DNA of 63,988 nucleotides, filler included, from an uncultured bacterium (GTDB lineage: Bacteria > CAYJOG01): assembly GCA_964371695.1 (NCBI GenBank). It is 4 parts of 4 records of this genome, joined end to end, with 100 filler letters (N's around TTAATTAATTAA, not from the genome) between each part and the next. Parts side by side here need not be neighbours in the genome. Positions count along the whole stretch, not along the records: positions 37,594 to 55,808 come from CAYJOG010000009.1; 3 more parts are not named here. The stretch is one strand, 5' to 3'. The notes beneath the pieces were generated by a model. The model had not been told where the DNA came from. It searched no databases and saw nothing but the letters and a program-made list of their open reading frames with translations. Shown here piece after piece: positions 30,363-55,650 of the stretch. How positions within the stretch are numbered: position 1 is the first letter of the stretch; each line of letters begins with the position of its first letter. The position numbers and the translations under genes are program-made.

Positions 30363-31874
<1,512 letters not shown>

Positions 31875-32910: not shown

Positions 32911-32971
32911 GTGGTTATTGTCGCACGAACCAGCGCCGAAATGCGCCATTCCGGCGCCACCGCCAGTTTAT

Positions 32972-33520: not shown

Positions 33521-33532
33521 AACTCAGGCCCC

Positions 33533-33943: not shown

Positions 33944-33965
33944 CCGGGGCCGTTCGCCACAGCGC

Positions 33966-34871: not shown

Positions 34872-34982
34872 CGGGGCATTGTACCCCGCTGCAAGAATTT
34901 GCCTCAAAAGTCTGTCGTGGACTTTTGAACTCCCCGCCCCCGGCGGCGTAAAAACTCCTGCCGGGTTGGCTACACTGCGCCC

Positions 34983-35729: not shown

Positions 35730-35937
35730 GCGGTTGAGGGCGTCCATTCCCGTGATTGTTCGCCTTGCCTGAGTAGCGGCGGTGTCCCCACCGCCGTCAG
35801 TAAAAAACTCAAGCCTATTAAAATCGTTTGTGCGCGGTGTGGACACCGCGCCTACTCCCAAAAAGCCTCAAATCCTTGATTCTGTTTCAACCCTGACGGC
35901 ACTGGCCGCCTGCGGTGCGGCGTGTTATAACCCCCCC

Positions 35938-37356: not shown

Positions 37357-37493
37357 AGTATTTTCGGAAATGGTAGAACAAAAGCGGGGCGATCCTTCAC
37401 CTCTCCCCTTGAGGGAGAGGTCGGATGGCTTGGCCCCATATGGCCAACGCAACCGGGGAATTGGGGCGGGGGGGGTTTTTGGGGTGCGGCAGC
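37354..37493. repeat. Family A terminal repeat plus family B hairpin at contig end
   Basis: TAGAGTATTTTCGGAAATGG overlaps the hslU stop; CCTCTCCCCTTGAGGGAGAGG follows. Confidence 0.75.
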
Positions 37494-37593
37494 NNNNNNN
37501 NNNNNNNNNNNNNNNNNNNNNNNNNNNNNNNNNNNNNTTAATTAATTAANNNNNNNNNNNNNNNNNNNNNNNNNNNNNNNNNNNNNNNNNNNN
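37494..37593. other. Artificial contig linker
   Basis: N runs flanking TTAATTAATTAA. Confidence 0.98.
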
Positions 37594-37663
37594 TTGGTCA
37601 ATACCACCCTCTCCCATCTGACGACGGGAGAGGGTAAAGAGCGGCGGCGTTCCTTCGCCGGCA

Positions 37664-38962: not shown

Positions 38963-38999
38963 TTTTTTCCTCTGGTTTTTATTCACCCTGGCGGCGCGC

Positions 39000-40388: not shown

Positions 40389-40456
40389 GTGGGGATTTTA
40401 CGTCAATTTTTCCATCCGGCACCCATTAGTGTCGCATTGCGTGAGAAAGCATGAAA

Positions 40457-41101
40457 TCAAGAAGCAGACCGAAGAAATTCAACAAATTCTGTTGCCGATT
40501 TCCCTGTCCATTGAAAAACGTCTTTGTCAGCGGCAGCACCAAGATTTTTGGTTATGTCGTTTTTTGAAAGCACCCCTAAAAGCCATATCCTTATCTTTAT
40601 TTTTGAAAACATGAGGACAGCTCTTTCGTCATTTAAAATATGCCTGTATAGGAATATGGCTCCGACAAATCTCTCGGCCATGCTCAAAAAAATATTCGGA
40701 GAAATTGAGTCCAAAACAAGATCTTCTAAAGACCCTACACTTTTTCCTTCTGCATGAATTACTCTTACCCCGACAGTAATCCTCTCATTTGAGACGTGTG
40801 AACCGTTAGAAGAGGGAACAGGAAGAGAGAATTTTCCAAGCACAGCACAAACGCTCTGGAAAGCGGAATTAACAGATTCATCCGCGTCTCTCGTTATGAC
40901 AAGATTCGTCACCTTATGAAAATCAGAAAGATTTAATATTGTTTTTATCCCCTTCTCCAAACTATCTTTTCCTCCATACTCCATGACTTGCCAGTCATTT
41001 AAGTGAAATTTTCGCGCAATTGATTCAAAAACAGCCTTGTCGTCTTTCCCCTCACAGAAGATAAGCTTTTCTTTTTCTATTTCAATTTGATCGGCTTGCA
41101 T
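40457..41101 (-). CDS. DUF3226-like (TOPRIM-type) protein, partner of the AAA ATPase
   Basis: LIFCEGKDD, ITRDAD, GSLEDLVL; AT-rich; starts 1 nt after the ATPase stop. Confidence 0.75.
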   Translation of the reverse strand: MQADQIEIEKEKLIFCEGKDDKAVFESIARKFHLNDWQVMEYGGKDSLEKGIKTILNLSDFHKVTNLVITRDADESVNSAFQSVCAVLGKFSLPVPSSNGSHVSNERITVGVRVIHAEGKSVGSLEDLVLDSISPNIFLSMAERFVGAIFLYRHILNDERAVLMFSKIKIRIWLLGVLSKNDITKNLGAAADKDVFQWTGKSATEFVEFLRSAS

Positions 41102-41102
41102 A

Positions 41103-42227
41103 TCAGCGGACTTCCCATTTTCTCTCCATGGCAAACCCAAGCTCTTCTTTATCCAAAACACTCACGTCTACGCCATCGGCGCTTTGTCTGAAACTGTGAT
41201 TAAAGAGAAAGCCATCTGGAGCCACATTGTGAGCAGCCACAAGACACTCTCTGCTATGGGTTGTCGCAAATATTTGTGTGTTTGTTTTTTTTGCCAGCTC
41301 AAATATGACTTTCCAAACAGGTTCAAGTCCCTTGTAGTAAATTCCATTTTCAATTTCATCTATTAATAGAACTCCTCCGGGCACCAATAACAACCTCAGC
41401 AAAATTGCCAACAGACGACCAACACCTTCTCCCATAAAATCCATCGGAATCATTTTTTCCGTTCCAAGATCCGCTCTCAAATACGGAGTCGCTTCATCTT
41501 GGAGGCCCAGGGAAATTCGCCTCAATTTGGGTTCAAGAATTCGCATGGCCTCGATTAATGGATCGGCTTTCGACTCTCCCTCCAGTTTGCTGAAAATAGT
41601 AGCATTGTCTTTTGTCTGTATTCCTTTACTTGGAATTATTTGGACAGAACTCCTGTCCAAAATGTTGCTTTCTCCGCGTGTTCGTATTAGCCCATTTGGG
41701 AGAATGGATATTTTAATGTCGCCCGAAGAGCCAGGATGCCCGATTGAATAATAAATATTAAACTCTTTCTCGCGGGGCAGAATGGTTTCGATATCATCTA
41801 TTTCCTGAAAAAGAGACTCCGTGTCAATAAAATCTCTGTCCACATCTTCTCTGGTGGCGGCTGCTCTTTCGATAGAAATAGACACGGCTCTGGTGTCGTT
41901 GTTGCTTGTTTCAGATGTAATGCGTGAGGTTCCTGGGCATGATTCGTTAATGTACCAAGCTAATGTATTTTCAACGACGCTGCCTCTATCGCCAGATATT
42001 CGTGGAGTCGGTTGAAAAAGCCGTCGTTTTCGTTCGTGCCGGAAATCCCTCATTTTTGCAAGATCGAACAAAGCAAGTGAATCGGATGGGCTTAAAAGAA
42101 GATATATTGCCTCCAGAAACGCCGTTTTGCCGACGTTGTTTGGGCCTACAATCAAATTTACTTGTCCACAATTCAACGACAACTTTTTGATAGACCTGAA
42201 ATTTTCAATGTGAATGTTTTTAAGCAT
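41103..42227 (-). CDS. AAA_15/AAA_21 ABC-type ATPase (AT-rich)
   Basis: IENFRSI, Walker A GPNNVGKT, MGEG signature, Walker B LLIDEIENGI, ATTHS. Confidence 0.9.
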   Translation of the reverse strand: MLKNIHIENFRSIKKLSLNCGQVNLIVGPNNVGKTAFLEAIYLLLSPSDSLALFDLAKMRDFRHERKRRLFQPTPRISGDRGSVVENTLAWYINESCPGTSRITSETSNNDTRAVSISIERAAATREDVDRDFIDTESLFQEIDDIETILPREKEFNIYYSIGHPGSSGDIKISILPNGLIRTRGESNILDRSSVQIIPSKGIQTKDNATIFSKLEGESKADPLIEAMRILEPKLRRISLGLQDEATPYLRADLGTEKMIPMDFMGEGVGRLLAILLRLLLVPGGVLLIDEIENGIYYKGLEPVWKVIFELAKKTNTQIFATTHSRECLVAAHNVAPDGFLFNHSFRQSADGVDVSVLDKEELGFAMERKWEVR

Positions 42228-42230
42228 CTC

Positions 42231-43553
42231 TTAGCCTCGCCTGCCCCTCACGCCCACCTGCTGTTTTTCGCGCTGGAGCTTGAAGATGTATTTCATGATG
42301 CGCTCCTTGGTGAATTCCGGCATGTTGCTGAACACCACGCCATAGCTGTACTTCCACTTGCGGTCGTGGCGCAGCTCCTGCACCCGCACCACCATGGCGG
42401 GCTGGGCCGGAAAAGCCAAGCCCTCCTCCAGCGTGAAATTGACCATGACCTCGTGGTTTTTCTCCAGTTTTTCGCGGGACTTAAAGCCCATGCCGCCACT
42501 GGAAATGTCGGTGGAAAGCGCCTCGATCTCTACCTTTTCTTCGCCGGCCTTGGGCGGCAGCCAATAGGTGTGGGCAAAGGAGACTTCTTCGCGCACCGCG
42601 CCACGCAACTGTTTTTTGAAAAGTTTGGCGGGGTGTTTGAGATAGAGCGTGCTGCCGGTGGCTTTTTCCACCGTGGCCGCAAACCGGTAACCCGCGCCCC
42701 GGCTTTGCCAGTTCACGTTCACATGGCCACCAGTCTGAAACCGCCCGCCCACGCGCTCGCTGGGCGGAAACCCCACCACGAGATGGCCGGGCGAAACATC
42801 GTCCAGGTTGCCCAGCAGCTTGTGGCCGTGTTCGTCGCTGATGTCCAGCATCTGGCCCACGGGCAAAAGCTCGGTGCCCACCCGGTAAGGTTCCTGATCC
42901 CACAACTCTTCCTTTTTCTGGGGAATGGCGATGGCGTGCGCGCCTTTTTTGGCCTTGAGTTTTTCGTAATCGGCCCGCATGGCCGTGATGGTTTCCACGC
43001 CCCAGCGGCTCAGGCGGTCCACGTGGGCCTGCGTAACCTGAGTGCCCTGGTGCAGCATGACCGCGCCGCGCACCTCCACCGGCTGCGCCAGCACCAGACC
43101 ATCCAGAATCTGGTTGATGGGCACCTGCACATAGGGGCTGCCCTCTTCGCCGCGCACCTCGGCGGGGGGGCCTTCTGCGCCCTCTGGCGGCGCAGGGGGC
43201 ACGATTTTTTCAATGCGCGGCACGATTTTTTCGGCGTCCACCGGCGCGAGCCAGAAATCGTTGACGCCATATTTCTTGGCCTTGAGCAGGTTTTCCTTTT
43301 GGGCGACATTGCTGAGAATGGCCACCTGAGCGTCGGGGTTGAACTCACGCATGAGCATGAGCGCGGGGGTCTGGTCTTCTTCGGGCAGGCGTTGCAGCAA
43401 AATCACCAGGGCCGGGTCTTCGGTGATCACCTCGGCCACCTCCACCTGCTCGCCGGGGCCGGGTTTCACGCCATAACCCTTTTTTTCAAGGGCGCTGCGC
43501 AGGGGCGCGAACTCTTCTTCGGGCCATGTGCCGATGAGCCAAATGTCGGGCAT
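42231..43553 (-). CDS. Receiver-like plus YcgR/PilZ domain protein
   Basis: Degenerate REC N-terminus; PilZ motifs QLRGAVR and DISSGG; ends IMKYIFKLQR. Confidence 0.85.
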   Translation of the reverse strand: MPDIWLIGTWPEEEFAPLRSALEKKGYGVKPGPGEQVEVAEVITEDPALVILLQRLPEEDQTPALMLMREFNPDAQVAILSNVAQKENLLKAKKYGVNDFWLAPVDAEKIVPRIEKIVPPAPPEGAEGPPAEVRGEEGSPYVQVPINQILDGLVLAQPVEVRGAVMLHQGTQVTQAHVDRLSRWGVETITAMRADYEKLKAKKGAHAIAIPQKKEELWDQEPYRVGTELLPVGQMLDISDEHGHKLLGNLDDVSPGHLVVGFPPSERVGGRFQTGGHVNVNWQSRGAGYRFAATVEKATGSTLYLKHPAKLFKKQLRGAVREEVSFAHTYWLPPKAGEEKVEIEALSTDISSGGMGFKSREKLEKNHEVMVNFTLEEGLAFPAQPAMVVRVQELRHDRKWKYSYGVVFSNMPEFTKERIMKYIFKLQREKQQVGVRGRRG

Positions 43554-43758
43554 GGAGGGGATTATAGAACTCATCGCGCACGTGCCATGAGATGTGAAGC
43601 AGAGATTGCGGCGGGGTGAGCCCAACCCCATGGAACCAAAAAACCAGTTGATTAAACCCGCGAGAAATTTTTTTTGAAACTCCTTTGCGGTGTCAGAGGG
43701 AAACGTTTAATTGGGTTCAGGCAAGGGAACACAACGGCAAACCCCACAAGGAGACAGC

Positions 43759-44307
43759 ATGACCCAACCCGACTCCAACCCCACCCCGGCAATGGTTTCT
43801 TCCCCCGATGAAACCACTCAGGCCGACGGTGAGGGACATGATCCTTCCACCCCCGCGCCCCAGGCCCGGCTGGCCCGGCTGGTGCGTGAGAACAAACGGC
43901 TCAAAAAAGCCCTGAAGGATCACCGCGCCCTGGGCGCAGCAGACGGATTGGCGGTTTCAGATGACGAAACCGGGCGGCTGAAGGGAGAAATCGAATCTCT
44001 TCAGCAGGCGCTGAACCTTGAGAAACAAAGTTCCCTGCTTCGTCTGGCAGCCTTTCGGTTGGGCGCGGCAGACCCTGAAGACGTGGTGAGCGCGCTCGCG
44101 GGCGAACTGGTTGAACAGTCCGCCGAAGACGCCGTGGCCGCGCTCAGGGCCCGCAAGCCCCACTGGTTCACGGGGCATGGCCCCAGCGGCATGCCAGGCC
44201 ATCCGGCGGCGGCCCCCGGCGCGGGGCCGCTTGCTGCGGCGGCGGCGCTTTTGCGCGAGCGCGGCGACACCCTGGGCCTGCTGCGCCTGGCGCAGGACGT
44301 GTTGTAA
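43759..44307 (+). CDS. Putative phage capsid scaffolding protein
   Basis: Disordered N-terminus, coiled coil (RLVRENKRLK), AVAALRARKPHWF followed by a G/P-rich tail; precedes the capsid gene; SD AAGGAG. Confidence 0.7.
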   Translation: MTQPDSNPTPAMVSSPDETTQADGEGHDPSTPAPQARLARLVRENKRLKKALKDHRALGAADGLAVSDDETGRLKGEIESLQQALNLEKQSSLLRLAAFRLGAADPEDVVSALAGELVEQSAEDAVAALRARKPHWFTGHGPSGMPGHPAAAPGAGPLAAAAALLRERGDTLGLLRLAQDVL

Positions 44308-44570
44308 TACCAATTTCCAACCAAAATAACATTAACTCTGAGCGATGAACCGGTTTGGAAACGGGTGCTGCGAAGTCAGACGGTTCGGTGAAAATTGGTA
44401 TGAATTCATGGATGAATTCAACTCGAACACCGAGGCCCAGACAGGGCCGGAGGTGTTCGCGGCGCAAGCGGGCTTTGCCTGCGCCGCGCCGGGCCGTAGC
44501 CATTCACGACGAATGGCAAGGCCAATAAAACCAATGAACATTCCTGCTATTTTGAATGTTCATTGGTATA
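44305..44570. mobile_element. MITE-like palindromic element with (T)ATACCAAT termini
   Basis: ATACCAATTT/AAATTGGTAT and ACCAATGAACATTC/GAATGTTCATTGGT inverted repeats; starts at the scaffold stop codon. Confidence 0.6.
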
Positions 44571-44789
44571 AAGACCCCGAAGGAGTGGGTGCGGTGTCCC
44601 CACCGCACACAAACCAAAAGAAAAGCAAGGGTTTTGCCATTCGCGGCGGTGTGGACACCGCCGCTACTCCGAAAAAGTCAGCACTGATGGGCAAAACGCC
44701 CTGATCACTGCGGACTTGTTGTCCGCGCCTTTTCCGCCGCTTTTTTCCGTCAAACCCAACCCCCACCCACCATTTTTGAGGAGGACTTC

Positions 44790-45920
44790 ATGGCTTATCC
44801 CACCGGTTATCAGGAACTGGGCAACACCCCGGTTGTGACCTACGACGAAATTTTCCGCCGCATCATTCAAGAGGCGGGCGGCATCAAGGCCCGCATTCAG
44901 GATGACCCCATTCAGGCCGACACCGACGGCGAATCGCTGGTGTATTACGACCGCGTCATCCGCCCCACCTACACCTCTCTCAGCGCCGCCGCCACGGTGG
45001 GGGCCACCACCCTTTCGGTGACGAGCGAGGCGGGCTTTTTTGTGAACGACCTCATCCAGGCCGAGAACAGCGCCGAGGTGATTCGTGTGACCGCCGTGGC
45101 CGCAGGCAGCCTCACGGTGAGCCGCGGCTTTGGCGGCAGCACCGCCGAGGCCATCGCAAACAGCACACGCCTCAACCGCATCGAACGCGCCAATCTGGAG
45201 GGCGACGCCGGTTATGACACCGCCGCCAACCCCGCCACACCGCGCACCAACGAATTCTGGCGCGCCCATGTGGTGTATGGCGTGACCGGCGACAACGAAG
45301 CCACCGCCCACCACGGCGGCCTGCCTGCAGGCACGAAACTGGCTTTTGAGCAGCGCGAGGCGCTCATCCGCGTGATGTACGGTTTTGAGCGGATGCTGCT
45401 TTATGGTGTGCAGCAGCGCGCCACCAAGGCCCAAGGGGGCAGTTTTCAGGGCCTTTTGCAAAGCATTGGCCTGCACAGCGCGGGCGCGGCGGTGCAAAAC
45501 ACCGTGGGGGCCATCACCAGCGACAAACTCACCCAGAGCGTGGAGCGCATCGCCACCCGTGGCGGCAACCCCAACGCCATTTACCTGCACCCCACGTTGA
45601 TTGGCCCACTGGTGGATGAACTTTCCGCCAACCTCACGGTGGACTCATCCAACGACACCCTGGGCCTGGTGGTGCGGCGGTTTGTGGCCGAAACAGGCCA
45701 CGTGCTGGCGCTGGTGCCCGACCGCAGCATCAACCCCCAGCACGTGGTGGTGCTGGACGAAACCATGCCCACGCTGGTGTGGAAACGCCGCATTGGCGTC
45801 ACCGATCTGGCGCAGGACGCCAACGACCAGCGCCGCCAGAAACTCAACTTTCAGGTGTCGCTGCAATATCCCAACGCCGGCGAAACCGCCGAGTGGCTCA
45901 AGGGCGTGACACCCGCTTAA
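44790..45920 (+). CDS. Putative major capsid protein (DUF5309/SU10-like, HK97 fold) with inserted beta domain
   Basis: ANLEGDA, RTN, FERMLLYG, GLLQSI, GGNPNAIY, LVPDRSI, DLAQD, KGVT end; 376 aa; SD GAGGAGG. Confidence 0.8.
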   Translation: MAYPTGYQELGNTPVVTYDEIFRRIIQEAGGIKARIQDDPIQADTDGESLVYYDRVIRPTYTSLSAAATVGATTLSVTSEAGFFVNDLIQAENSAEVIRVTAVAAGSLTVSRGFGGSTAEAIANSTRLNRIERANLEGDAGYDTAANPATPRTNEFWRAHVVYGVTGDNEATAHHGGLPAGTKLAFEQREALIRVMYGFERMLLYGVQQRATKAQGGSFQGLLQSIGLHSAGAAVQNTVGAITSDKLTQSVERIATRGGNPNAIYLHPTLIGPLVDELSANLTVDSSNDTLGLVVRRFVAETGHVLALVPDRSINPQHVVVLDETMPTLVWKRRIGVTDLAQDANDQRRQKLNFQVSLQYPNAGETAEWLKGVTPA

Positions 45921-45954
45921 CCCGCTCTTTTCTGCAACCAGGGTTTTCCTCTCT

Positions 45955-46141
45955 TTAAACCTGTTTATAAAGTCCGTCGTGGACTTTATAAACCCAACGC
46001 CTTCAGGGGCAAAGCCCCCTCGGCGTGGCGAAAACCTCCGCTTTTTCGAAGCTCCGGTTTTCGAGGGCGGTCATCCATGACCGCAAGAGCCTGTTTGATA
46101 TGCGCCATGTTGTTACACAGTGCATTTTATAAACAGGCTCT
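45955..46141. repeat. Hairpin repeat (AAAGTCC...GGACTTT family) plus AGAGCCTGTTT mini-element
   Basis: GTTTATAAAGTCCGTCGTGGACTTTATAAAC; related hairpins at about 19148-19175, 34904-34929, 4243-4274 and 22357-22389. Confidence 0.7.
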
Positions 46142-46397
46142 TTGTTCCGCCAACCGTGAAATGGCTTTGCAAGACGCCACCCCACCTGAGCCGGTTTATC
46201 CGTCATCAGAAAAAGAAAAGCAGCGTTCTTCGGCCACCGCACCAAAACCACACGGCGCAGAACTTTCCCCTCACCTCACGAGAACCCTGGCATATCCGAA
46301 TAACGGGGGCGGAACCCCGCCCCCTTTTCTTTCTCCCAAAGCGCATCACCAGACACGGGCGGCGGGAACAACTGTTCATGGCCTCTGACGCTGGATT

Positions 46398-46549
46398 CCC
46401 CCTCTCCCCTTTAATGGGGAGAGGGTTGGGGTGAGGGGTTTATTCAAAGAACAAAAACCAATCAGATGTTTTTTTTGTTTGAACCCCTCACCCGGATGAA
46501 CTGGCCAAAAAGAAGCCAGTCAATCCGACCTCTCCCTCAAGGGGAGAGG
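46398..46549. repeat. Family B REP doublet (CCCTCTCCC...GGGAGAGGG.TGGGGTGAGGG)
   Basis: Closely similar composite at 51883-52023; related copies at 53693-53712, 59235-59443 and 37399-37420. Confidence 0.85.
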
Positions 46550-46625
46550 TGACGATGGGAGCCTCTCCCCGCCAGGGAGCCACAGCAAACCCGCCCTCTT
46601 TTTTCTTCCACGAAAGGACACGGCA

Positions 46626-46868
46626 TTGAACCTCCTTTTCATGCTCACGCTTTCTGAAAACGGCCTGCCCCCCGCCACTGTTGCGGCGGCCCTGTCAGAC
46701 CCCACCGTGGAGTTTCGCCTGTTACGTCACCACACACAGCCCCAGGCCATTTTGCGCACTGATCTGGAACTGGCCCCGGCTGAAGGCGTAGAGGTTCTTT
46801 CTGCCCAGCAGGCCCAGGGGTTTTATGACGCCGGGGGTTATGAAGAAATCGCCGGGGGGGTGGTGTGA
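46626..46868 (+). CDS. Small hypothetical protein of the phage-like cluster
   Basis: SD AAGGA before TTG; stop overlaps the next start (TGATG). Confidence 0.65.
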   Translation: MNLLFMLTLSENGLPPATVAAALSDPTVEFRLLRHHTQPQAILRTDLELAPAEGVEVLSAQQAQGFYDAGGYEEIAGGVV

Positions 46869-48019
46869 TGCCCGGCCCCAACATCCTTTTGAGCGACACC
46901 CTGCGCGCCGCCGATCCCCTCAAGTGGCAGGCCGTGTTCACCGGCGCACAGCACGCCTACGCCCCTGACGGTCTTTTGACCTATGGTGCAGCGGCTTACC
47001 CCAACTACGGCCTCGTCAGCCTGGGAACCTTCAGCCGCACCAACCTGGTGCTGGTGTTCACCCAGGCGGCTTATCTGAACACCATCGGCAATTTTTTCGG
47101 CTACGCCAACGATTTGCCCGGCACACTGCGGGCCATACAAAACGGCACCTTCGCTGCCCTGAACAACGACCGGATTTTTGGTTACGGTTATTCCGGCGGC
47201 GTGCTGGTGGAATCGGTGAACGGCGGCACGGTGTTGCAAAGCACCGCCCCCGTGCAGCGATTCTGGGGCGCCATGAAACTGCTGGGCACCGGCGCGTTGA
47301 TCAAATGGCGCAAGGGCGACGCCGGCCCCTGGACCGCCGCCACCAACAACCCCGCCACCGGCAGCGCCACCAACCTGAACGTGGTGGTGGGCGTGCCTTA
47401 TTCCGCCGGTGTGGGCGTGGTGTGGGGCGTGGCGGCAGAGCAGAGCGATGGGGATTTCAGCGACGCACGCCTCGACGCCATCGTCACCGCCGCCAACCTC
47501 CGGCCCGGTTACGCCGCCGCCAACCCGCGCCACACCCTGGCGGCCCGCGCCCTGCAAATCGGCCGCAGCAACGTGGTGACGGTGGAGTTGCAGGACGGCG
47601 ACCGACCCCTCACCGGCGTCGCCCCCGCCGAAGTGGCCTGCACACTGGTGAAAAACGGCGTGGCCGGCGCAAAAACTTTGACCGCGCTCAACTTCACCGA
47701 AGTGGACGCCGTGAACGCGCCGGGGCTTTATCGCCTCGTCCTCGACAAAACCGACGTGAACGCCCTGGGTGAACTGGTGGTGATGGTGACGCCCCCCGCC
47801 GGTTCGTGGCGGTTTGCGCCCTTCAAGGCCCGCTGCGAAGTGACCGCGCTGGAGGCCATGACGCTGAACGCCAAAACCGCCGGCCTGAGCGGCCTTGTCA
47901 CGGTGAAAGACGCCGACGGCCTGCCGCTTTTCAGCACGCAATACAAACGGGTGGACACACAGGACATGACCCTGCCCGCCACGCATTTTGGCGGCCACGG
48001 CGGATGGAGCCAGACATGA
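46868..48019 (+). CDS. Putative virion accessory or decoration protein (beta-rich, two domains)
   Basis: G/A/T/N-rich; C-terminal FTEVDAVNAPGLYRL motif reminiscent of virion Ig-like domains; coupled to its neighbours. Confidence 0.6.
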   Translation: MPGPNILLSDTLRAADPLKWQAVFTGAQHAYAPDGLLTYGAAAYPNYGLVSLGTFSRTNLVLVFTQAAYLNTIGNFFGYANDLPGTLRAIQNGTFAALNNDRIFGYGYSGGVLVESVNGGTVLQSTAPVQRFWGAMKLLGTGALIKWRKGDAGPWTAATNNPATGSATNLNVVVGVPYSAGVGVVWGVAAEQSDGDFSDARLDAIVTAANLRPGYAAANPRHTLAARALQIGRSNVVTVELQDGDRPLTGVAPAEVACTLVKNGVAGAKTLTALNFTEVDAVNAPGLYRLVLDKTDVNALGELVVMVTPPAGSWRFAPFKARCEVTALEAMTLNAKTAGLSGLVTVKDADGLPLFSTQYKRVDTQDMTLPATHFGGHGGWSQT

Positions 48020-48144
48020 CCCCCGACCTCTTTGCCCTGGGCCAGAGCCCCGACGGCTCGGACATCATCGTGTCCAACACACTGGCGGAACTGACCCTGG
48101 AACTCAAAAACAACGACATCGCCTTGGAGGTGGAAGAAACATGA
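48016..48144 (+). CDS. 42-aa hypothetical peptide
   Basis: ATGA overlaps at both ends; SD GGAG. Confidence 0.6.
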   Translation: MTPDLFALGQSPDGSDIIVSNTLAELTLELKNNDIALEVEET

Positions 48145-48488
48145 GCACCGCCGTGAAACAGGTGTTTTACAACGAAGGCCCCACCACGGTGACCGTGCGC
48201 CTTTTGAGCGACGGCGCGGCGCTGGACCTGACGGCCTATGACACCGTGGCCCTTGAGCTGCGCGACAGGCCCATCACGCTGGGCACCGACACGCCCCAGC
48301 TCAGCGTCACCGGCTGGTTTGTGGATCAGGCCGGGGGGCGCGTGTCTTTTGATGTGGCTGCGGCCCACACCGTGTCGCTGGGGCTGGGGCGGTTTTCAGC
48401 CCAGGTGGTCTGCTCCAACGCCGGTGGCGACAGGATCAAAAGCCCGCTGTTCACGCTGGTGATCAAGGGAGGAACCTCTGGTGTCTGA
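48141..48488 (+). CDS. Small beta-sandwich virion protein (BppU N-terminal-like)
   Basis: TVRLLSDGAALDLT...VDQAGGRVSF...GRFSAQV pattern; SD GGAGG. Confidence 0.55.
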   Translation: MSTAVKQVFYNEGPTTVTVRLLSDGAALDLTAYDTVALELRDRPITLGTDTPQLSVTGWFVDQAGGRVSFDVAAAHTVSLGLGRFSAQVVCSNAGGDRIKSPLFTLVIKGGTSGV

Positions 48489-48900
48489 ACCCTTTTCCTT
48501 CATCCTCACCGCCACCGACGTGCTGTTGGAAGAACCCCAGGCCCTCACCCTCAGCCCGCACCCCGACGACCAGAATCTGGCCACGCTCATTCAGCGTCAG
48601 GGCGACGTGTTGCTGCGCAAACTGCGCCAGCGGGGCGTGGACCCGGCCGCCCTCACCAGCGCCGCCGACACGCTGGTGCGCGAGATGCATCTCTATCAGG
48701 TGTTGTGCGCGCTTTATGCCCGCGCCATGCGCTCGGCGGGCGACCGTTATCACCTGCTGCTGCAACACTATGAGCGCGAGCTGGACAACGCCCTGGAGCG
48801 CGAGGCCTTGGGCCTGGACACCGACGCCGATGGCGCAACCGACACCGAAGGCAGCGCACGCCTGCGGGCCACGCGGCTGAAAACAGAGGTGAGCGAATGA
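48481..48900 (+). CDS. Putative head-tail adaptor/connector
   Basis: 139 aa, helical, ends in LDTDADGATD; position after the capsid; SD GGAGG. Confidence 0.55.
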   Translation: MSEPFSFILTATDVLLEEPQALTLSPHPDDQNLATLIQRQGDVLLRKLRQRGVDPAALTSAADTLVREMHLYQVLCALYARAMRSAGDRYHLLLQHYERELDNALEREALGLDTDADGATDTEGSARLRATRLKTEVSE

Positions 48901-49325
48901 CCACCTGGACCACCATTCACAACGCCTTCTGCAAAAAACTCGTGGACCTGGGTTATCGCCCCCTCGGCTCCCTGGACATTGGCGAGGCCACCTTTGGTGA
49001 ACTGGACGGCGGCTTTGGCGTGAGCGCCCTGGACGTGACCTTGGCCGAGCAGAACGTGAACGGCACCATGGACCGGGAATATCACGTGCGCGTCACCCTC
49101 ACCAGGCTGCTGGATCAATCCCGCCGCGCCGCCTCGGTGCAGGACCTGGTGGGACAGGAAGAAACCGTGGTGGCGGCGTTGTGTTCTTTTCCGTGGTATC
49201 GGGGCGAAGGCCTGCGCCGGGTGTTGTTCGAGCACACCGTTTTTCAGCACCAGTCCCGTGGCGTGGCCGGTTCCGTGGCCGTGGCCGAAGCCGATTTTCT
49301 TGTTCTTGTCCGCATGGGGGTTTAG
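48897..49325 (+). CDS. Putative tail terminator / head-tail completion protein
   Basis: 142 aa alpha/beta protein immediately before the tail tube; assigned mainly by synteny. Confidence 0.45.
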   Translation: MTTWTTIHNAFCKKLVDLGYRPLGSLDIGEATFGELDGGFGVSALDVTLAEQNVNGTMDREYHVRVTLTRLLDQSRRAASVQDLVGQEETVVAALCSFPWYRGEGLRRVLFEHTVFQHQSRGVAGSVAVAEADFLVLVRMGV

Positions 49326-49776
49326 GCGGCCTGAAACAATTGAGGGAGCAGGCGCAGTGTCCCCACCGTGCACAGACCACAAAAAAACCGGGCGTTTTTT
49401 TATTGTGACCTCACCCGGTTTTTCTTTTGGCCGTGGGGGGGGGGGGGGGGGCGCCGCGGCCGCATAAAAAATAAAAAAAAAAAAGATNNNNNNNNNNCCC
49501 CCCGTTTTTTTTTTTTGGGCGGGGGGGGGGGCCCCCCCCCCCCTAAAAAAAAAAACCAAAATTTTTTTTTTTTTGGGGGGGGGGGGGCCCCCCCCCGCCC
49601 CACTGAAAGAAAACAGAAAAAGAAAACAAAAAAGGTGTGGTGTTTTTGTTTCAACTGGCTTCCCGCTTTCGCGGGAATGACGACGGGGGAGACGAGAGCC
49701 TTTTTCTTTTCCAACCTCCGACTTCCAACTTCCATCCCCCTGTTTTCAACCACCAACTTCCACCCAAGGAGCTTCC

Positions 49777-51153
49777 ATGACCAGTCCCTATCCCGTTCGT
49801 CTCACACAGGCCCTGATGGCGGTGGAAAACAGCCCCGGCACAGACGCCGTGGCCCGCACCGTGACGCTGGAAGGAACCGTGAACGGCGTCAACACTGCCT
49901 TTGACATTCCAGAAAGCCACTTGGCCTACCAGCAGGTGGTGGGCAATGACTTCACCGCCTACAAAGACGGCGTGGCCGACAACGCCGCCACCTTTGCTGA
50001 AGGCACGGGCGCGGGCGGGCGGGACAGGCTCAACTTCAGCGTCGCCCCCGCCACCAGCGCCGCCGCCCGCGTGCTGCAGGGCGCGCCGCTCAACCTGGGG
50101 GCCTTTGCGCTGGAAACGGACATCACCCCCGTGGCCCGCGTGGCCTACACCCAGGGGCTGGACACTCCCGCGCCCAGGCCGGGACAGGTCAAGTCTGCCG
50201 CCCAGTTTGAAATGCCCCTGATGGCCGGTGTGAACGCCACACGCCCGCCCCCCATCGCGCCGGTGCTGAAAGCGGCGGGTTTTGACGAAACACAAAACGG
50301 CGCGGTGTGGACCTATGCCCTGAGCGCCGCACCCGCACCCGCCACGTTTTATGCCTGGCTGGGGGCCACCGTGCGCCGCCTGACGGGCGCGCTGGCGGAT
50401 GTGGATTTTGTATTCGAGGCAGGCCAGGCGGCCGTGGCGCGGGTGCTGCTGAACGGGGGGTTTCTTTCACCCGTGGATGCGGATTATCCCACTGGTCTTT
50501 CGCTGCCCGCCGGCCTGGAGCCGCTGTGCGAAAACATGGACCTCACCCTGGGCGACGACGCCCTCAGCGTCACCATCAACAACGCTGGGGGCTACACGGC
50601 GGCGGACACCACGCTGGTGCTGGTGTCCACCACGGGACTTGCAGCGGGGGATCTGCTGCGGGTGGAAACCACAGGTGAAATCCTGAAGGTCTCTGCCGTG
50701 GATTCCGCCACAACCGTTACGGTTTCGCGGGCAGAGCGCGCCACGGCGGCGGCGGCCGTGGCCAATGGCGCGGCACTGCGGCGGCTTTACCGGGTGGTGT
50801 GCCCGCGACTTTCACTCTCGCTCGGCAACGAACACGCCGACCGGCAGGACATGAACAGCGCCTTTGGCCTGAAGGGCCGCCTGATGACAGGCCGCACCGC
50901 CACCCTGAGCGTGGACATCGAGCCGATGACCGAAAACGAAAGGGCCTTCTGGCAGGACTTCGCCAGTCAACAGGCCGTAGCCATCGGTTTTTCGCTGGGC
51001 TTTGCCGCCGGAGAAAAAGTGGCCATCACGCTGCCCGCCGCCCGGCTCATCAAACCCCAGGACAAAAACGACAAGGAGAACTGGCTCTATTCGCTGGACT
51101 TCGCACTGGAAAAAACCGCCAGCGCCGCCGCCCTGACGCTTACGTTTTATTGA
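49777..51153 (+). CDS. Putative major tail tube protein with two inserted domains
   Basis: AVENSPGTD start, PPIAPVLKAAGF, ATFY, LTGA, LSLGNE, TGRT, TLTFY end; SD AAGGAG. Confidence 0.75.
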   Translation: MTSPYPVRLTQALMAVENSPGTDAVARTVTLEGTVNGVNTAFDIPESHLAYQQVVGNDFTAYKDGVADNAATFAEGTGAGGRDRLNFSVAPATSAAARVLQGAPLNLGAFALETDITPVARVAYTQGLDTPAPRPGQVKSAAQFEMPLMAGVNATRPPPIAPVLKAAGFDETQNGAVWTYALSAAPAPATFYAWLGATVRRLTGALADVDFVFEAGQAAVARVLLNGGFLSPVDADYPTGLSLPAGLEPLCENMDLTLGDDALSVTINNAGGYTAADTTLVLVSTTGLAAGDLLRVETTGEILKVSAVDSATTVTVSRAERATAAAAVANGAALRRLYRVVCPRLSLSLGNEHADRQDMNSAFGLKGRLMTGRTATLSVDIEPMTENERAFWQDFASQQAVAIGFSLGFAAGEKVAITLPAARLIKPQDKNDKENWLYSLDFALEKTASAAALTLTFY

Positions 51154-51193
51154 ACCTGAAGCGCTACACAATCCCCCCATCAAAGGAGCCGCC

Positions 51194-51586
51194 ATGGCCA
51201 TCAAACTGCTTCACCCCAACAAGCTGCTGCCCTTCTCGCTGGCGGGCGACACCGCCGAGCCGCGCACACGTTTCATGCTGCGGATGCTTTCTTCAGCCCG
51301 CCGCGACCTGTGGCTGGAGGAACTTTCCGGCCCCATGTCCCTCACCGAAAAAGACCCCCTGCGGCTTTTGGCGGCAGACCGATGGCGGGCGCTTTTTGGC
51401 GAGGTGGTGGCCGAGGTGCGCCACGTGGATCTGGACGACGGCCATGGCTGCCGCACGGTGAAGGGCGGCACAGCCGATTTTGACCAGATCAACCAGCGCC
51501 TGCCCGCCGAGGTGGTGGTGGAGGTCGCGAGCGCAGGACTGCTGGCCAACACGCTGAGCACACAGGAAAAAAAAGACTGCGCCTGA
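51194..51586 (+). CDS. Tail assembly chaperone (gpG-like)
   Basis: Between tube and tape measure; ends NTLSTQEKKDCA across an A8 run; SD AAGGAG. Confidence 0.75.
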   Translation: MAIKLLHPNKLLPFSLAGDTAEPRTRFMLRMLSSARRDLWLEELSGPMSLTEKDPLRLLAADRWRALFGEVVAEVRHVDLDDGHGCRTVKGGTADFDQINQRLPAEVVVEVASAGLLANTLSTQEKKDCA

Positions 51587-51876
51587 CGTGGCGGTTTTTG
51601 CGCCACGCGGATTCCTGGCGCTGTCAGGATGCCCCCTGCCAGACCCCCGCTGGCCGCGCCCACCACGGCTGCACCGGCCCGGCACAGAGAGCCATCTGGA
51701 AAGACCTGGGCGAAACGCTCACCCAGTGCCCCCTGAGCGAGGGCTGGATGGATGGTCTGGCCCCTGTTCTTAAGTCCGTTTTGTCTTTTCACCTCACGGG
51801 CCTGGCCCCCGCCGGAGCCAGCCAGTGGCGCAACCCCGCCGTGTTCATGGACGCACTGGAGACCCTGGTTTTTTGA
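51567..51876 (+). CDS. -1 frameshift extension (gpGT-like, Cys-containing)
   Basis: Slippery A_AAA_AAA at 51568-51574; the -1 frame is open to TGA 51876 and has no SD of its own. Confidence 0.7.
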
Positions 51877-52080
51877 GGCAATCCCCTCTCCCCTTCAATG
51901 GGGAGAGGGCTGGGGTGAGGGGTTGATTCAAAAACAAAAAACCAAACAGATGTTTTTGCTTTTTGTTTTAACCCCTCACCCGCCTCGAAATGCCCAATGG
52001 GCGTTTCTCGCCGACCTCTCCCTCAAAAGAAGCGGTGAAAAACCCTTCCCCATCAACCCCTTTTGAAAGGACACCGGCCC

Positions 52081-52731
52081 ATGGCCAATGAGAATTTTCC
52101 TTCACCGGCTGAACTGGAACAAAGCCTGCAACGCGTGGCCAGTCTGCGCCAGGCGCTGGTGCAGGCCAGTGAACCCCTGCGGGCGCTTTCGGCGCAACAA
52201 CAGCAAACCTTTCAGAACATCTCCACCGGCCTGCAGGGCGTGCTGGGCAGCCACCGCGAAGTCGTGCAAGAAAGCGCTTCGCTCTGGAAAAAAGGTCTGT
52301 TTGATTTGCTGGAGGGCCGCCTGCGGTCTTTTGAAGACCTGAGCCGTCAGGTGCTGCGGTCTTTTGCCAACGAGGCCGTGAGCGCCCTGGCTGGCCTGGC
52401 GCTGAAAAAGGGCGGCGACGCGGGCGGCGTGCTCTCAGACCTGCTCACCGACGGGGGCGACGGCGGCAGCGAGGCTGGTCTGCTGAGCGCCCTGGTGGGC
52501 AAACGACAAAGCAGCCGTTCCACCGGCGACACACCCACCCGCCAGCGTATTGAAGTGGGGGGACACATCACCGTGAGCAGCCCCGACGGCACCGTGCAAC
52601 AGATGCCCCCCGAACTGGTGCAGGCCATTGCCGCACGGGCCGCACAGGGCGAAATCGAAAATCAGGTCTCAAGCGGGCGCGGCCCCCTGGGCGCACAACT
52701 GGCCGAGTTCAAACGGGCCGCACGGCATTGA
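52081..52731 (+). CDS. Very short tape-measure-like protein (216 aa)
   Basis: Helical A/L/Q/S-rich; FDLLEGRLRSFEDLSRQVLRSF, Gly-rich stretch, then a beta/alpha C-terminus; canonical position after the chaperone. Confidence 0.65.
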   Translation: MANENFPSPAELEQSLQRVASLRQALVQASEPLRALSAQQQQTFQNISTGLQGVLGSHREVVQESASLWKKGLFDLLEGRLRSFEDLSRQVLRSFANEAVSALAGLALKKGGDAGGVLSDLLTDGGDGGSEAGLLSALVGKRQSSRSTGDTPTRQRIEVGGHITVSSPDGTVQQMPPELVQAIAARAAQGEIENQVSSGRGPLGAQLAEFKRAARH

Positions 52732-52920
52732 AAAGATGGCTTCAGGCTTCAGGAAAGAAAAGGGACCATCGTCCCCTCTTCCCCACCAGGAGTAGGCGCG
52801 GTGTCCACACCGCGCACAGATTTTTGATCTTCTCGGCGACGGGGATGTCACCGCTACTCCAATAAAAACACACACCACCAGCCCTGCATCCTCCAGCCTC
52901 ACCACTGAAAGGAAATAAAA

Positions 52921-53673
52921 ATGAGCAACCCCATCACCATCCTGCCCATGGGCAGTTTTCAGGCCACCGACCAGGGCGGCCTGTATCAGTTTGGCGGACA
53001 GATTGACGCCACCGGCTGGAAGCTGTTTGGCGGCAACGTGCCCCTTTTGCTGGGCGCGCCCCTGGGCAGCACCACCAAGTTTCTGCTGGGCAATAATGAA
53101 GTCGCACAGTTCAACACCAGCGGCCTGCAACTGCCCACGGCCAAGGGGGTGGGCATTGGCGAAAGCCCGGCGGGCAAGTCGCTGGTCATCGGCAGCGCCG
53201 AGCCGGTGGCGGAACTCAAAAGCGGCCTCAAACTGGGGGCCTCGCCGGGCGCCACGCTGGACCACTACACCGAGGGCACCTTCACACCCGCCCTGGTGTG
53301 GGGCAGCGGCGGGGGCAGCTTCACCTATGCCTCACAAATCGGGCGTTACGTGCGCATTGGCAAACAGGTGAGCGTGTGGTGCCGGGTGGTGCTCTCGGCC
53401 ATCACCGAGGGCACAGGCATTTTGCAGATGACCGGCCTGCCCTTTGTGAGCAACGGCGCTTATACCCTGGCGCGCCTGGGCAACCTGCTGCACCACAACG
53501 TGGCCCAGCCCGCCGGCAGCCACTACGCCGTGTGCGAGGCCACCTATGGCGGCAACTATGTGCAGTTTTTTTCCATCCTGGAAAACGCCACCGCCCAGGT
53601 GTGGACCGCCGCCAACACGGCCCTGGCCAATAACGCCTCGCTGTATGTCACTGCGGTGTACGACACCATCTGA
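52921..53673 (+). CDS. Putative tail or head fibre, receptor-binding protein
   Basis: LDHYTEGTFTP, GRYVRIGKQV and TGLPF motifs typical of phage fibre C-terminal domains; SD AAGGA. Confidence 0.7.
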   Translation: MSNPITILPMGSFQATDQGGLYQFGGQIDATGWKLFGGNVPLLLGAPLGSTTKFLLGNNEVAQFNTSGLQLPTAKGVGIGESPAGKSLVIGSAEPVAELKSGLKLGASPGATLDHYTEGTFTPALVWGSGGGSFTYASQIGRYVRIGKQVSVWCRVVLSAITEGTGILQMTGLPFVSNGAYTLARLGNLLHHNVAQPAGSHYAVCEATYGGNYVQFFSILENATAQVWTAANTALANNASLYVTAVYDTI

Positions 53674-53782
53674 CCCGAAGTGCTGTTTTTTGCCCTCTCC
53701 CTGAGGGAGAGGGCAAGTGACAACACCACCTTGAACCCAACGCCATAGCAAAAACAGACCCTCACAAAAAAAGGAGAAACCC

Positions 53783-54049
53783 ATGGAAACAAAAATCACA
53801 CTGCTGGAACTGGTGGTGGGTGCGGGCGGGCAGGACTTCGCCCTGTTCGCAGAAAAAATCGGCTTCACCGACATGCCGGGTTTTGGCACGGTGCAAAGCC
53901 CGCCCCACCGCACACAGGTGGCCCTGCCGCCGGAACTCGTCACCCAGGTGAACGCCGTGATTGATCACGTCATCACCGCCCTGGGAGCCACCATGACACG
54001 CGAGCAGGTGAAGGCCCAGATGGCCGCCCTGCTGCCGCCGGCGGAGTAA
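53783..54049 (+). CDS. Small hypothetical protein (possible fibre chaperone)
   Basis: SD AAGGAG; follows the fibre gene. Confidence 0.6.
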   Translation: METKITLLELVVGAGGQDFALFAEKIGFTDMPGFGTVQSPPHRTQVALPPELVTQVNAVIDHVITALGATMTREQVKAQMAALLPPAE

Positions 54050-54052
54050 CCC

Positions 54053-54835
54053 ATGGGCGACATCACAATCGGCACAGCGGGCGGCGCGGGCATCGAGGTC
54101 ATCGCCACCGGCGAACTCACCGGCGCACTGCGCCTGAGCGCGGCGGCGGGCACAAATGCCGTGTGGGTGGACAGCGAACTTTTGCCCGTGGGCATTTGCA
54201 CCGGCGCGCTGGGTTTCACCGAAGTGCTGCATCAGCAGGACGCGGGCGCGGAGGTGCGTTATCTGTTCAGCACTGACCAGCGCCACACGTGGCAGCGCCA
54301 CAACGGCAGCGCCTGGGTGGCCGTGGCTGATCCGCTTTTGGGGTCATGGGCAGAGGCCAACACCGCGAGCGCCCTGACCGCTCTCGCCATGACACAACTC
54401 AAGGTGAGCACCGGCACACTGCACGTGCGCATCTGGATGAAAACCGGCACACCCGGCAACACCGTGGTGCTCAGAAACCTGAAGCTGTCGGTGGGGCCAT
54501 TCCTGCCCATCTTGGGCCTGGTGCGGCCCGACGAAAACCCACTGGACCTGCAACACGTCACCGTCATCAGCACCGGCGAAACAGGCGAGGAGGAACGCTG
54601 GCTGAAACGCAGCGCCCACCGGCGCGAGTGGGACCTGAAATGGAGCGGCCTGACACAGGAGGAGCGAGACGGTTTTGTGGCCTTTGTGGCCAGCAAGCTG
54701 AACTACACCGCCTTTGCCTGGACCAACCCGGATGACGGTGTGGAATACAACGTGCGGCTGGACGGCTGGAGCGTCTCCCCGGCGCTGGGGGCGCGGCCAT
54801 TTTTCAACGCCCAGGTCAGGCTGGTGCAGACATGA
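54053..54835 (+). CDS. Distal tail protein (DUF2460-like C-terminus) with an extra N-terminal beta domain
   Basis: TVISTGETGEEERW...RREWDLKW...AFAWTNP...YNVRL; ATGA-coupled to the hub gene. Confidence 0.65.
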   Translation: MGDITIGTAGGAGIEVIATGELTGALRLSAAAGTNAVWVDSELLPVGICTGALGFTEVLHQQDAGAEVRYLFSTDQRHTWQRHNGSAWVAVADPLLGSWAEANTASALTALAMTQLKVSTGTLHVRIWMKTGTPGNTVVLRNLKLSVGPFLPILGLVRPDENPLDLQHVTVISTGETGEEERWLKRSAHRREWDLKWSGLTQEERDGFVAFVASKLNYTAFAWTNPDDGVEYNVRLDGWSVSPALGARPFFNAQVRLVQT

Positions 54836-55650
54836 GCCGCACCCTTTCACCGGCCCTGCAAACCCTGCTGGCGGGGGGCGAATATCAGGCCGCCTATCTG
54901 CTGCGCCTGAGCGTGGGCGGCAGCGTCCTTTATCTCACCACGTGGGATGACCCCATCACGCACAACGCCAACACCTATTCGCCCAAGGGCTTCCGGTTCA
55001 AGGCCGAGGCCTATGACCGTGCGCTGAAAGAGGCCGACGGCGACATTGAAATCAGCAACGTGGGACTGGGCATTTCGGCGCTGGTGGCCAATGCGGCGCT
55101 GGGTTCGGCCACGGTGGAGATCGATCTGTTCTTCCCGGACGTGTCCGAGGCGGTGTCCATTCTGAAAGGCCGCCCGGCGCTGAAGCAGGCCAACGAAGAC
55201 ATGGCCACCTTCACGGTGATACCGGCCACGCGGCGCATGGAAGAAGACTATCCGCCCCACGCCATCAGCGCCCTGTGCCGTTGGCGTTTTGCGGATGCCG
55301 TGACGTGTCAGGCAGCCCACGGTGAACTGACCGGCCAGACGGCGGACGCGGGTTGCACCAACGCCCTGCTGGTGGACGCCGCACGCACCGAAGACACGGG
55401 TTACACCGGCCCCGGCAGTTATTGGGCCGACGGTTACGTCACCTTCACCAGCGGCGCGCTCACCGGCCACACGCGGGCCATTCAGGTGAGCGCCACGGGC
55501 AGCCTCACGCTGGAAGTGCCTTTTGATTCCGCCCCCGCCACGGGGGATCAATACACCCTGCGGCGGGGCTGCAACCGCACGTTTGAAGTGTGCGACGGGC
55601 GTTTCAACAACGTCACCCGCTTCGGCGGATTTGTGGATTTGCCGACATAA
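54832..55650 (+). CDS. Baseplate hub protein (DUF2163 / BR0599-like)
   Basis: LYLTTWD..IT....YSP, CRWRF....C, G.VTFTSGALTG, GDQYTLRRGCNRTFEVCDGRFNN..RFGGF. Confidence 0.85.
   Translation: MSRTLSPALQTLLAGGEYQAAYLLRLSVGGSVLYLTTWDDPITHNANTYSPKGFRFKAEAYDRALKEADGDIEISNVGLGISALVANAALGSATVEIDLFFPDVSEAVSILKGRPALKQANEDMATFTVIPATRRMEEDYPPHAISALCRWRFADAVTCQAAHGELTGQTADAGCTNALLVDAARTEDTGYTGPGSYWADGYVTFTSGALTGHTRAIQVSATGSLTLEVPFDSAPATGDQYTLRRGCNRTFEVCDGRFNNVTRFGGFVDLPT

Follow-up and report, generated by a model that had tools for sequence, protein, structure and literature searches.

The window analysed here is a 63,988-nucleotide stretch of DNA from an uncultured bacterium (GenBank assembly GCA_964371695.1), composed of contigs joined end to end, one of which (C9, positions 37594-55808) carries a phage-like cluster of head and tail genes that starts at a scaffold-like gene close to a divergent host gene. 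The genes for DNA packaging lie at a separate locus: an intact gene for the large terminase subunit (TerL) and the assembly's only portal gene stand together on another contig, C11, among host genes. This split layout is well supported, and we regard it as very probably real. More cautiously, at a probability of about 0.5, we suggest that the two loci together make up a functional system resembling a gene transfer agent (GTA), that is, a domesticated particle encoded at two loci. The assembly (G000) comprises 672 contigs and 3.43 Mb, is 83% complete and has a genome GC content of 61.2%.

The head-tail-lysis cluster and its borders

The left border and the portion of the cluster that falls within the window are laid out as follows, in window positions:

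42231..43553, minus strand: host gene with PilZ and receiver domains (PF07238, 2.2e-09; PF00072, 3.1e-05)
43554..43758: spacer of 205 bp, left boundary of the cluster
43759..44307, plus strand: scaffold-like protein, 182 aa, first gene of the cluster, with its ATG behind GGAGA (PF06810, 6.7e-06)
44790..45920, plus strand: major capsid protein of SU10 type, 376 aa (PF17236, 1e-20)
46626..49325, plus strand: five open reading frames (ORFs) of 80, 384, 166, 139 and 142 aa, placed by position
49777..51153, plus strand: probable tail tube protein, 458 aa (atlas feature search, 0.90-0.91 to viral clusters; weak phrog_4406)
51194..51876, plus strand: candidate pair of tail assembly chaperones (G, 51194-51586; GT, through the -1 frame to 51876)
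52063..52731, plus strand: short, helix-rich protein rich in Ala, Gly and Gln, 222 aa, between chaperones and baseplate
52921..54049, plus strand: beta-rich tail protein of 250 aa and an 88-aa ORF (phrog_17970, 6.4e-08)
54053..54835, plus strand: distal or minor tail protein, 260 aa (PF05939, 4.7e-04, under the cut-off; phrog_14, 5.3e-05)
54832..55650, plus strand: baseplate hub of BR0599 / phiJL001 gp84 type, 272 aa (PF09356, 6.3e-18; PF09931, 1.8e-08; phrog_778, 1.1e-25)

An earlier reading of the window, made without database searches (the sequence-only reading), had placed about 205 bp between the divergent PilZ gene and the scaffold ATG within one contig, with neither terminase nor portal upstream, and both statements hold. 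The spacer measures 205 bp on C9 and is single-copy in the assembly, and a contig of 1335 bp, separately assembled from a public sediment run (X1), covers positions 43048-44382 with 0 differences. Since the spacer is unique and bridged by this contig, the junction between PilZ and scaffold is real and not a repeat-mediated join. Public gene calls start the PilZ gene at 43631, giving a 466-aa form and a spacer of 127 bp; this form was found on a public contig of 34,186 bp. The 6 kb before the scaffold gene on C9 hold host and defence genes only, namely TldD/PmbA-like genes, a low-GC candidate defence pair of the PDC-M38 type and the PilZ gene itself, and Pfam, PHROG and PADLOC scans of this stretch returned no terminase or portal. 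The PilZ gene is host-like in composition (GC 0.61; GC at third codon positions, GC3, 0.78). The three promoter-like matches in the scanned region fall on the minus strand; the scan gave no plus-strand match ahead of the scaffold gene.

The scaffold-like protein scores 26.6 bits against PF06810, under the cut-off of 35, so that its family assignment falls short; a role as scaffold is plausible from its position, size and coiled-coil-like sequence. The capsid gene directly downstream belongs to PF17236 (74.9 bits against a cut-off of 24.1) and is the family's only match in the assembly, in which PF05065 capsids had no match at all. Capsid relatives were recovered at 96% and 73% identity; searches of genome, metagenome and viral collections with a capsid alignment yielded no confirmed related locus, and a wider alignment had no usable conserved stretch.

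The five ORFs that follow the capsid have no Pfam or PHROG match and are, by their position, candidates for head decoration or head-tail connection. None of them is portal-like, and a portal-family profile found nothing on C9. Their 384-aa member gave weak Ig-like leads (atlas feature search, at most 0.82) and no meaningful sequence match in the PDB. The 458-aa protein is probably the major tail tube protein; some of the viral clusters near it have Phage_tube_2 in 13-28% of their members, which we treat as a lead only. Downstream, an A AAA AAA slippery run (51568-51574, within a run of eight A at 51567-51574) lies ten bases ahead of the stop of a 130-aa ORF, and the -1 frame stays open for some 100 further codons, to 51876. 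By analogy with the known tail arrangement of siphoviruses, this looks like a pair of G and GT chaperones made by programmed frameshift. The 222-aa protein has no Pfam or PHROG family match, and is a candidate tape measure. The hub gene is single-copy in the assembly and the last gene before the end of C9, which terminates in a genome-wide repeat 158 bp past it.

The whole cluster measures about 20 kb; these genes are its left part, and the remainder lies outside the window on a further contig, C1. That contig opens with a repeat followed by a 1516-aa J-like fibre gene (phrog_31, 5.5e-61), and the assembly's one match to Phage-tail_3 is at its extreme start. A low-GC candidate defence pair is inserted between the fibre and the lysis genes:

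C1, 4718-5981: PDC-M19 candidate defence pair, DUF488 and a divergent 279-aa protein (PDC-M19A, 1.6e-35; PDC-M19B, 7.6e-59)

Beyond it come a 113-aa ORF and an M15 endolysin (phrog_894, 1.7e-41), then ORFs of 73 and 305 aa, an ankyrin protein, and FG-GAP, tRNA-synthetase-like and OGG-like host genes. Exact-sequence look-ups in public assemblies, in which co-location is deduced from matching sizes of the longest contigs, gave a longest contig of 34,186 bp for all 13 of the C9 and C1 proteins that were found; this set includes PmbA, the AAA_15 protein, PilZ, scaffold, capsid, tube, hub, fibre, DUF488, endolysin, ankyrin and tRNA-synthetase-like proteins. As proteins of both contigs have this longest contig in common, C9 and C1 adjoin each other in a better assembly, and the cluster is an array of head, tail and lysis genes with host genes at either end. 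A terminase and portal directly downstream of the hub, which the sequence-only reading had named as the outcome that would overturn it, are not what lies there: the J-like fibre, the endolysin and then host genes follow.

The packaging locus and a presumably divided module

A whole-genome search for terminases and portals returned two TerL genes and one portal gene. The sequence-only reading had offered three explanations for a cluster that starts at the scaffold: that the packaging genes lie at a separate locus, that the particle packages no DNA, or that the left arm was deleted. The first is borne out, as the intact TerL gene and the portal gene occur together on C11 among host genes and have host-like GC; deletion is not supported, because the packaging genes exist elsewhere in the genome. 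Features of this locus and of the second TerL are given in contig positions:

C11, from the ATG at 4705: TerL, 448 aa (PF03237, 44 bits; phrog_2, 2e-29)
C11, 11006-13104: type II methyltransferase (PADLOC MTase_II, 1.7e-56) and restriction-enzyme-like gene, GC about 50%
C299, 1-4337 (a contig of 4.3 kb): second TerL, 483 aa, 39% identical to the C11 TerL, between an N6/N4 methylase fragment and a resolvase (serine recombinase)

The C11 TerL is assigned to PF03237 with 44 bits against a cut-off of 22, its phrog_2 match spans residues 36-465, and its sequence displays what we take to be the P-loop, Walker B and nuclease Asp motifs. Terminase_6N had three matches in the assembly, the two TerL genes and a protein on C202 that was rejected as a terminase, being a helicase. 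No portal follows the second TerL on its 4.3-kb contig, and no small terminase was recognised at either the C9/C1 or the C11 locus.

The portal protein (457 aa) was missed by the PF04860 and PF05133 models, neither of which found a portal directly in the assembly, and was recognised through homology to a protein of G011, a genome from another phylum, and with a purpose-built profile. It aligns over 450 residues (BLASTP, E 2.6e-23) with the G011 protein, which matches PF05133 (SPP1_portal) at 3.6e-15. The profile search recovered 1798 relatives, and in an alignment of 61 sequences (the query and 60 profile matches) 26 have PF05133 as their sole family match; the query has no Pfam match of its own. 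A structure model reached a predicted local distance difference test (pLDDT) score of 91.5 and, among the matches listed by Foldseek against the PDB, retrieved phage portals or portal-containing assemblies (Douge, SPP1 gp6, Bxb1, 80alpha/SaPI1, T7 and SU10) with E-values from 1.5e-12 to about 1e-6. An earlier model, built from a six-sequence alignment, had a pLDDT of 34 and was useless, and a PDB sequence search with the portal profile gave nothing meaningful. On family membership and predicted fold, we identify the C11 protein as an SPP1 gp6-like portal. It is the single portal that the profile finds in the assembly, and tblastn found no paralogue.

To the left of TerL, C11 carries host genes on the minus strand (GDPD, YfhO and a PhnD-like binding protein), with a host gene directly adjoining TerL. 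Between TerL and portal is an IS200/RAYT-like gene, on the minus strand and flanked by 40-bp direct repeats. Rightward of the portal, C11 continues with repeats and a 10-N gap, followed by a 636-aa ORF, the methyltransferase and restriction-enzyme-like genes, an ABC ATPase, mdh and sucCD. The 636-aa protein, which has host-like GC and lies between portal and methyltransferase, has neither a family match nor a meaningful sequence match in the PDB. All five C11 proteins that exact look-up found (TerL, portal, PhnD-like protein, methyltransferase and mdh) have a longest contig of 87,272 bp, a size never returned for the capsid-side proteins. On the 34,186-bp contig, the genes from PmbA through the tRNA-synthetase-like gene already occupy about 31.0 kb, too much for the 3.5-kb TerL-portal pair to fit as well.

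A 672-contig, repeat-rich metagenome-assembled genome, with a 10-N scaffold gap in each of C9 and C11, invites the suspicion that the two loci are truly adjacent or come from different organisms. We consider such an assembly or binning artefact hardly credible: the spacers at both junctions are unique sequence, a separate public contig spans PilZ and scaffold with 0 differences, the public contigs of 34,186 and 87,272 bp preserve the same partition, and C9 and C11 share genome-wide repeat families and GC.

Distant relatives indicate how the two loci fit together. On contig C16 of G011, TerL, an SPP1-type portal, a 164-aa ORF and an SU10-type capsid are contiguous, and a comparison of this region with ORFs of C9, C11 and C299 gave matches to the C11 TerL, the C11 portal, the C9 capsid and the C299 TerL, and to no others. 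Among named phages, those of the type of Vibrio phage 1.289.A are closest by capsid, at about 25% identity; in 1.289.A the genes run from terminase through portal and a coiled-coil protein to capsid. Both carry the same TerL, portal and SU10-type capsid families as the present element, at 24-26% identity, and in both the presumed ancestral order of TerL, portal, scaffold and capsid is contiguous, whereas here it is split. Because TerL, portal, scaffold and capsid are contiguous in these distant relatives, one ancestral module appears to have been divided between portal and scaffold, and a single morphogenesis module cut at that point would be the simplest history. C11 supplies exactly what C9 and C1 are without, and TerL, with its second copy on C299, is the only function duplicated. 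Both break regions adjoin mobile cargo and repeats.

The G011 element itself is a block of about 9.4 kb (C16, 59452-68840) in which the TerL, portal, 164-aa and capsid genes are followed by genes for proteins of 127, 580, 253 (BppU_N), 80 and 200 aa (SLT). Its GC is above that of its surroundings, host genes lie on both flanks and no integrase was seen in it; it may be another miniature domesticated element. It differs from the present element in its small size, and in having BppU_N and SLT genes where the latter has a long tail module of siphovirus type.

The remaining proposal of the sequence-only reading, a particle that does not package DNA, has become less likely. We judge it highly improbable that the cluster encodes, for example, a protein-delivery or bacteriocin-like particle to which the TerL-portal pair is unrelated. 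Such a particle would accord with the unlinked packaging genes and with the failure to find a small terminase. Against it, a scaffolded capsid needs a portal to join its tail, and the assembly's only portal is on C11; TerL, portal and capsid all match one contiguous module in G011; and the TerL motifs appear intact, with both TerL and portal kept at identities of at least 90% in other metagenomes.

Apparent maintenance, origin and likeness to gene transfer agents

The phage-like genes have a GC of 0.61-0.67 and a GC3 of 0.65-0.85, similar to the host genes mdh (0.63 and 0.83) and PmbA (0.65 and 0.80), whereas the evident imports (the PDC-M38 and PDC-M19 pairs, the RAYT-like gene and the methyltransferase-restriction pair) have a GC of 0.40-0.54. 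The host's own intergenic repeats have colonised both halves of the element. Metagenome runs from sediment contain DNA near-identical to that of this genome, and a relative at about 90% identity is present in two runs from groundwater that belong to another study (X5 and X6). Compared with C9, the groundwater sequences differ by 5.4-15.5% over the cluster and by 7.7-12.1% over the TldD-like and PilZ flanks. The relative has neither the PDC-M38 island nor several of the repeat patches, and its genes are kept. Joints in its contigs skip repeat stretches at 45947>46185, 46076>46399, 51867>52078 and 53675>53782; joints with short sides (21-36 letters) were counted as repeat matches.

Codon position 3 accounts for 24 of the 33 within-gene differences listed (9 of 12 in the hub, 11 of 16 in the gene for the 250-aa protein and 4 of 5 elsewhere), by a manual count that covers the listed differences and not the 1582 further ones. 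Sequences at least 90% identical to TerL (5/5), portal (5/5), capsid (3/3), hub (3/3) and fibre (4/4) are all close to full length, and a more distant relative was found at 73% identity for the capsid and 63% for TerL. A scaffold homologue of 92% identity sits on a contig of 2182 bp, and an X5 contig with PilZ and 861 further bases is also 2182 bp long; from this equal size, the junction of PilZ and scaffold appears to be conserved in the relative. A different neighbour for PilZ in X5 and X6, where contigs were listed as matching only to 43567, was considered and set aside, colinearity being more likely given the shared size. As regards vertical inheritance, two populations at 5-15% divergence, with similar divergence in the flanks, appear to share the junction and to retain intact genes. 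The element looks maintained rather than decaying, and purifying selection appears to have preserved both of its halves in at least two populations that have diverged.

These observations bear on the possibility of a dead prophage with the two loci as its scattered remains, in which a rearrangement, possibly mediated by repeats or by the RAYT-like gene, parted TerL and portal from the rest, leaving slow decay or partial use and no particle. A transposase-like gene does stand between TerL and portal, the cluster has taken up repeats and a defence pair, five of its ORFs lack a family match, and scans of the C9 and C1 ORFs recognised no small terminase, integrase or regulator. We nevertheless think this rather unlikely, since all recognisable structural genes are intact, both here and at identities of at least 90% elsewhere, the differences listed favour codon position 3, insertions avoid coding sequence, the slippery site of the chaperone gene is retained, and the junction appears to predate the separation of the two populations, which are about 10% apart.

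A live temperate phage or a helper-dependent satellite, served by packaging genes at the far end of a large prophage or on another element, seems to us very unlikely. The endolysin gene shows that lysis functions are present, a second TerL accompanies a resolvase on C299, and defence cargo within a structural cluster is typical of prophages. Opposed to this are the borders of both loci: a host gene lies directly left of TerL, the portal is followed on its right by the 636-aa ORF, the restriction-modification pair and then mdh and sucCD, and the head-tail locus has PilZ/PmbA to its left and ankyrin, FG-GAP and tRNA-synthetase-like genes to its right. The loci belong to separate contigs, one of 34 kb and the other of 87 kb, and neither the 34 kb nor C11 yielded an integrase or replication gene. 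The arrangement is thus not that of an intact temperate prophage, its packaging genes being on another contig among host genes and its flanks without integrase or replication genes.

Scans of the ORFs on C9, C1 (to 18.7 kb) and C11 turned up no family of integrases, repressors or replication proteins, so that on these contigs of an assembly 83% complete the element consists of phage-like structural genes without integration, replication or lysogeny modules, as is required of a GTA. It occupies two loci (C9/C1 and C11); in a GTA, such dispersed genes would be under common control. The element looks maintained, and neither locus was seen to have integration or replication genes beside it, which fits the pattern described for GTAs, a set limited to packaging and structural genes and dispersed over several loci (PMC11841831; PMC5026251). 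In a functional GTA-like system, expression of the TerL-portal locus would coincide with that of the head-tail-lysis locus, TerL and portal would load the capsids, probably with host DNA, tails would attach to the filled capsids, and the endolysin would release the particles.

Several points weigh against this interpretation. The element is known here from genome sequence alone. No small terminase was recognised at its two loci, and the second TerL beside a methylase and resolvase on C299 could serve the capsid. The IS200/RAYT-like gene splits TerL from portal and the PDC-M19 pair splits fibre from lysis genes, interruptions that fit decay and tolerance alike. In an assembly of 672 contigs that is 83% complete, another portal, capsid or integrase may have escaped assembly. 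Co-location in the better assemblies is deduced from equal sizes of longest contigs; the third-position count extends to the listed differences only; and the comparison covers two populations and one relative at 63-73% identity, all without genomic context, and a single genome of the phylum. Finally, an old, ordinary prophage of a long-term host can also gain host-like GC.

GTAs 'tend to be encoded by multiple loci', in the words of one article (PMC11841831). Another lists five loci for RcGTA of Rhodobacter capsulatus and two for VSH-1 of Brachyspira hyodysenteriae, and its gene table has the terminase, portal and capsid of RcGTA together in the main cluster (PMC5026251), as is also described for the Caulobacter GTA (PMC9632790). 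The present element resembles RcGTA and VSH-1 in its chromosomal head, tail and lysis genes at more than one locus and its host-like composition, with no integrase or replication module seen, and its hub is of the BR0599 type, as in RcGTA-like tails. In RcGTA and the Caulobacter GTA, TerL and portal are part of the main cluster, whereas here they are the part split off; RcGTA has an HK97-type capsid with a protease, whereas the capsid here is of SU10 type (PF17236, not PF05065) and comes with a scaffold. The element is outside the RcGTA family on three counts (capsid type, a scaffold in place of a protease, and unlinked TerL and portal), the hub family alone being shared.

The hub invites comparison with two complete phages as well. 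In phiJL001 and Roseobacter phage RDJL, a hub with BR0599 / gp84 N-domain is followed by a large J-like host-specificity protein, as here, and the hubs are about 25% identical over their full length; records of the RDJL proteins carry the words 'gene transfer agent'. Those phages have genomes of 42-64 kb, unlike the present element. No NlpC/P60 gene was seen between hub and fibre here.

On this genomic evidence, the element is a good candidate for a new GTA lineage. More specifically, though tentatively, it may be an independently domesticated GTA descended from a siphovirus-like ancestor with an SU10-type capsid, its motor (TerL and portal) being encoded apart, and the conserved divergent protein with PilZ and receiver domains may tie particle production to cyclic di-GMP signalling. 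A title in the reference list of PMC11841831 links cyclic di-GMP with gene transfer in Rhodobacter.

Few independent lineages of GTAs are known, and distinguishing GTAs from dead prophages by sequence is hard. The present element offers a clean case, with packaging genes physically apart from an otherwise complete head-tail-lysis operon, and with both parts intact, host-like and kept in two environmental populations. If active, it would add an uncultured, deep-branching lineage of sediment and groundwater to those with GTA-like gene exchange and would show that even the terminase-portal pair can become unlinked from the capsid genes.

Window layout, repeats and mobile cargo

By BLAST against the window's own assembly, four contigs joined by N spacers make up the stretch, which also holds a candidate defence pair and a number of repeat patches:

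1-18887: contig C7
18888-18987: N spacer
18988-37493: contig C8
33168-33384: repeat patch outside the cluster
37494-37593: N spacer
37594-55808: contig C9, with the phage-like cluster
40457..42227, minus strand: PDC-M38 candidate defence pair, AAA_15 ATPase and DUF3226/OLD-TOPRIM-like protein (Pfam; PADLOC)
44299..44700: repeat patch resembling repetitive extragenic palindromic (REP) elements or miniature inverted-repeat transposable elements (MITEs), up to 58 copies genome-wide, containing a 119-aa ORF
45940-46144 and 46396-46552: repeat patches around a variable stretch, the region 45940..46552 being probably geneless
49345..49760: repeat patch with a 10-N gap
49488-49497: 10-N scaffold gap of C9, inside that patch
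51879-52045, 52787-52821 and 53678-53727: further repeat patches on C9
55654-55808: repeat patch that ends C9, up to 184 copies, followed by an N spacer
55809-55908: N spacer
55909-63988: contig C107

C11 likewise contains one 10-N scaffold gap. The genes metK, pheS and pheT (58003-62647) are on C107 and not on C9; being on a separate contig, they are not true neighbours of the phage-like cluster. Gene neighbourhoods read across the N spacers are not real, and a practical lesson is to check for chained contigs before interpreting gene order in scanned windows. The genome is the sole representative of its phylum in a collection of 199,900 species: a search for kin genomes offered 40 candidates, all of them merely from the same domain, and a phylum search gave this genome alone.

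The PDC-M38 pair scores 3.6e-57 (PDC-M38A) and 3.8e-07 (PDC-M38B) in PADLOC, and AbiLi/AriA-like models match it too. With a GC of 40-43% and a read depth of 0 over 40634-41849 in X5 and X6, this island is strain-specific and lies outside the phage-like element.

A 9-mer common to the regions upstream of the scaffold gene and of TerL has 115 copies in the genome and was dropped as a common control element for want of specificity. The 119-aa ORF and another of 103 aa were likewise rejected as genes, being repeat sequence. Eight repeat patches fall in the C9 part of the cluster, where they overlap the assigned structural genes by no more than a few bases. The short-repeat families number from tens to about 180 copies in the assembly, are often palindromic and are located at contig ends, which accounts for the fragmentation of the assembly. 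They are probably REP-, REPIN- or MITE-like, and three paralogous Y1 transposases of the IS200/RAYT-like type (C11, 6235-6771; C29; C53) may mobilise them.

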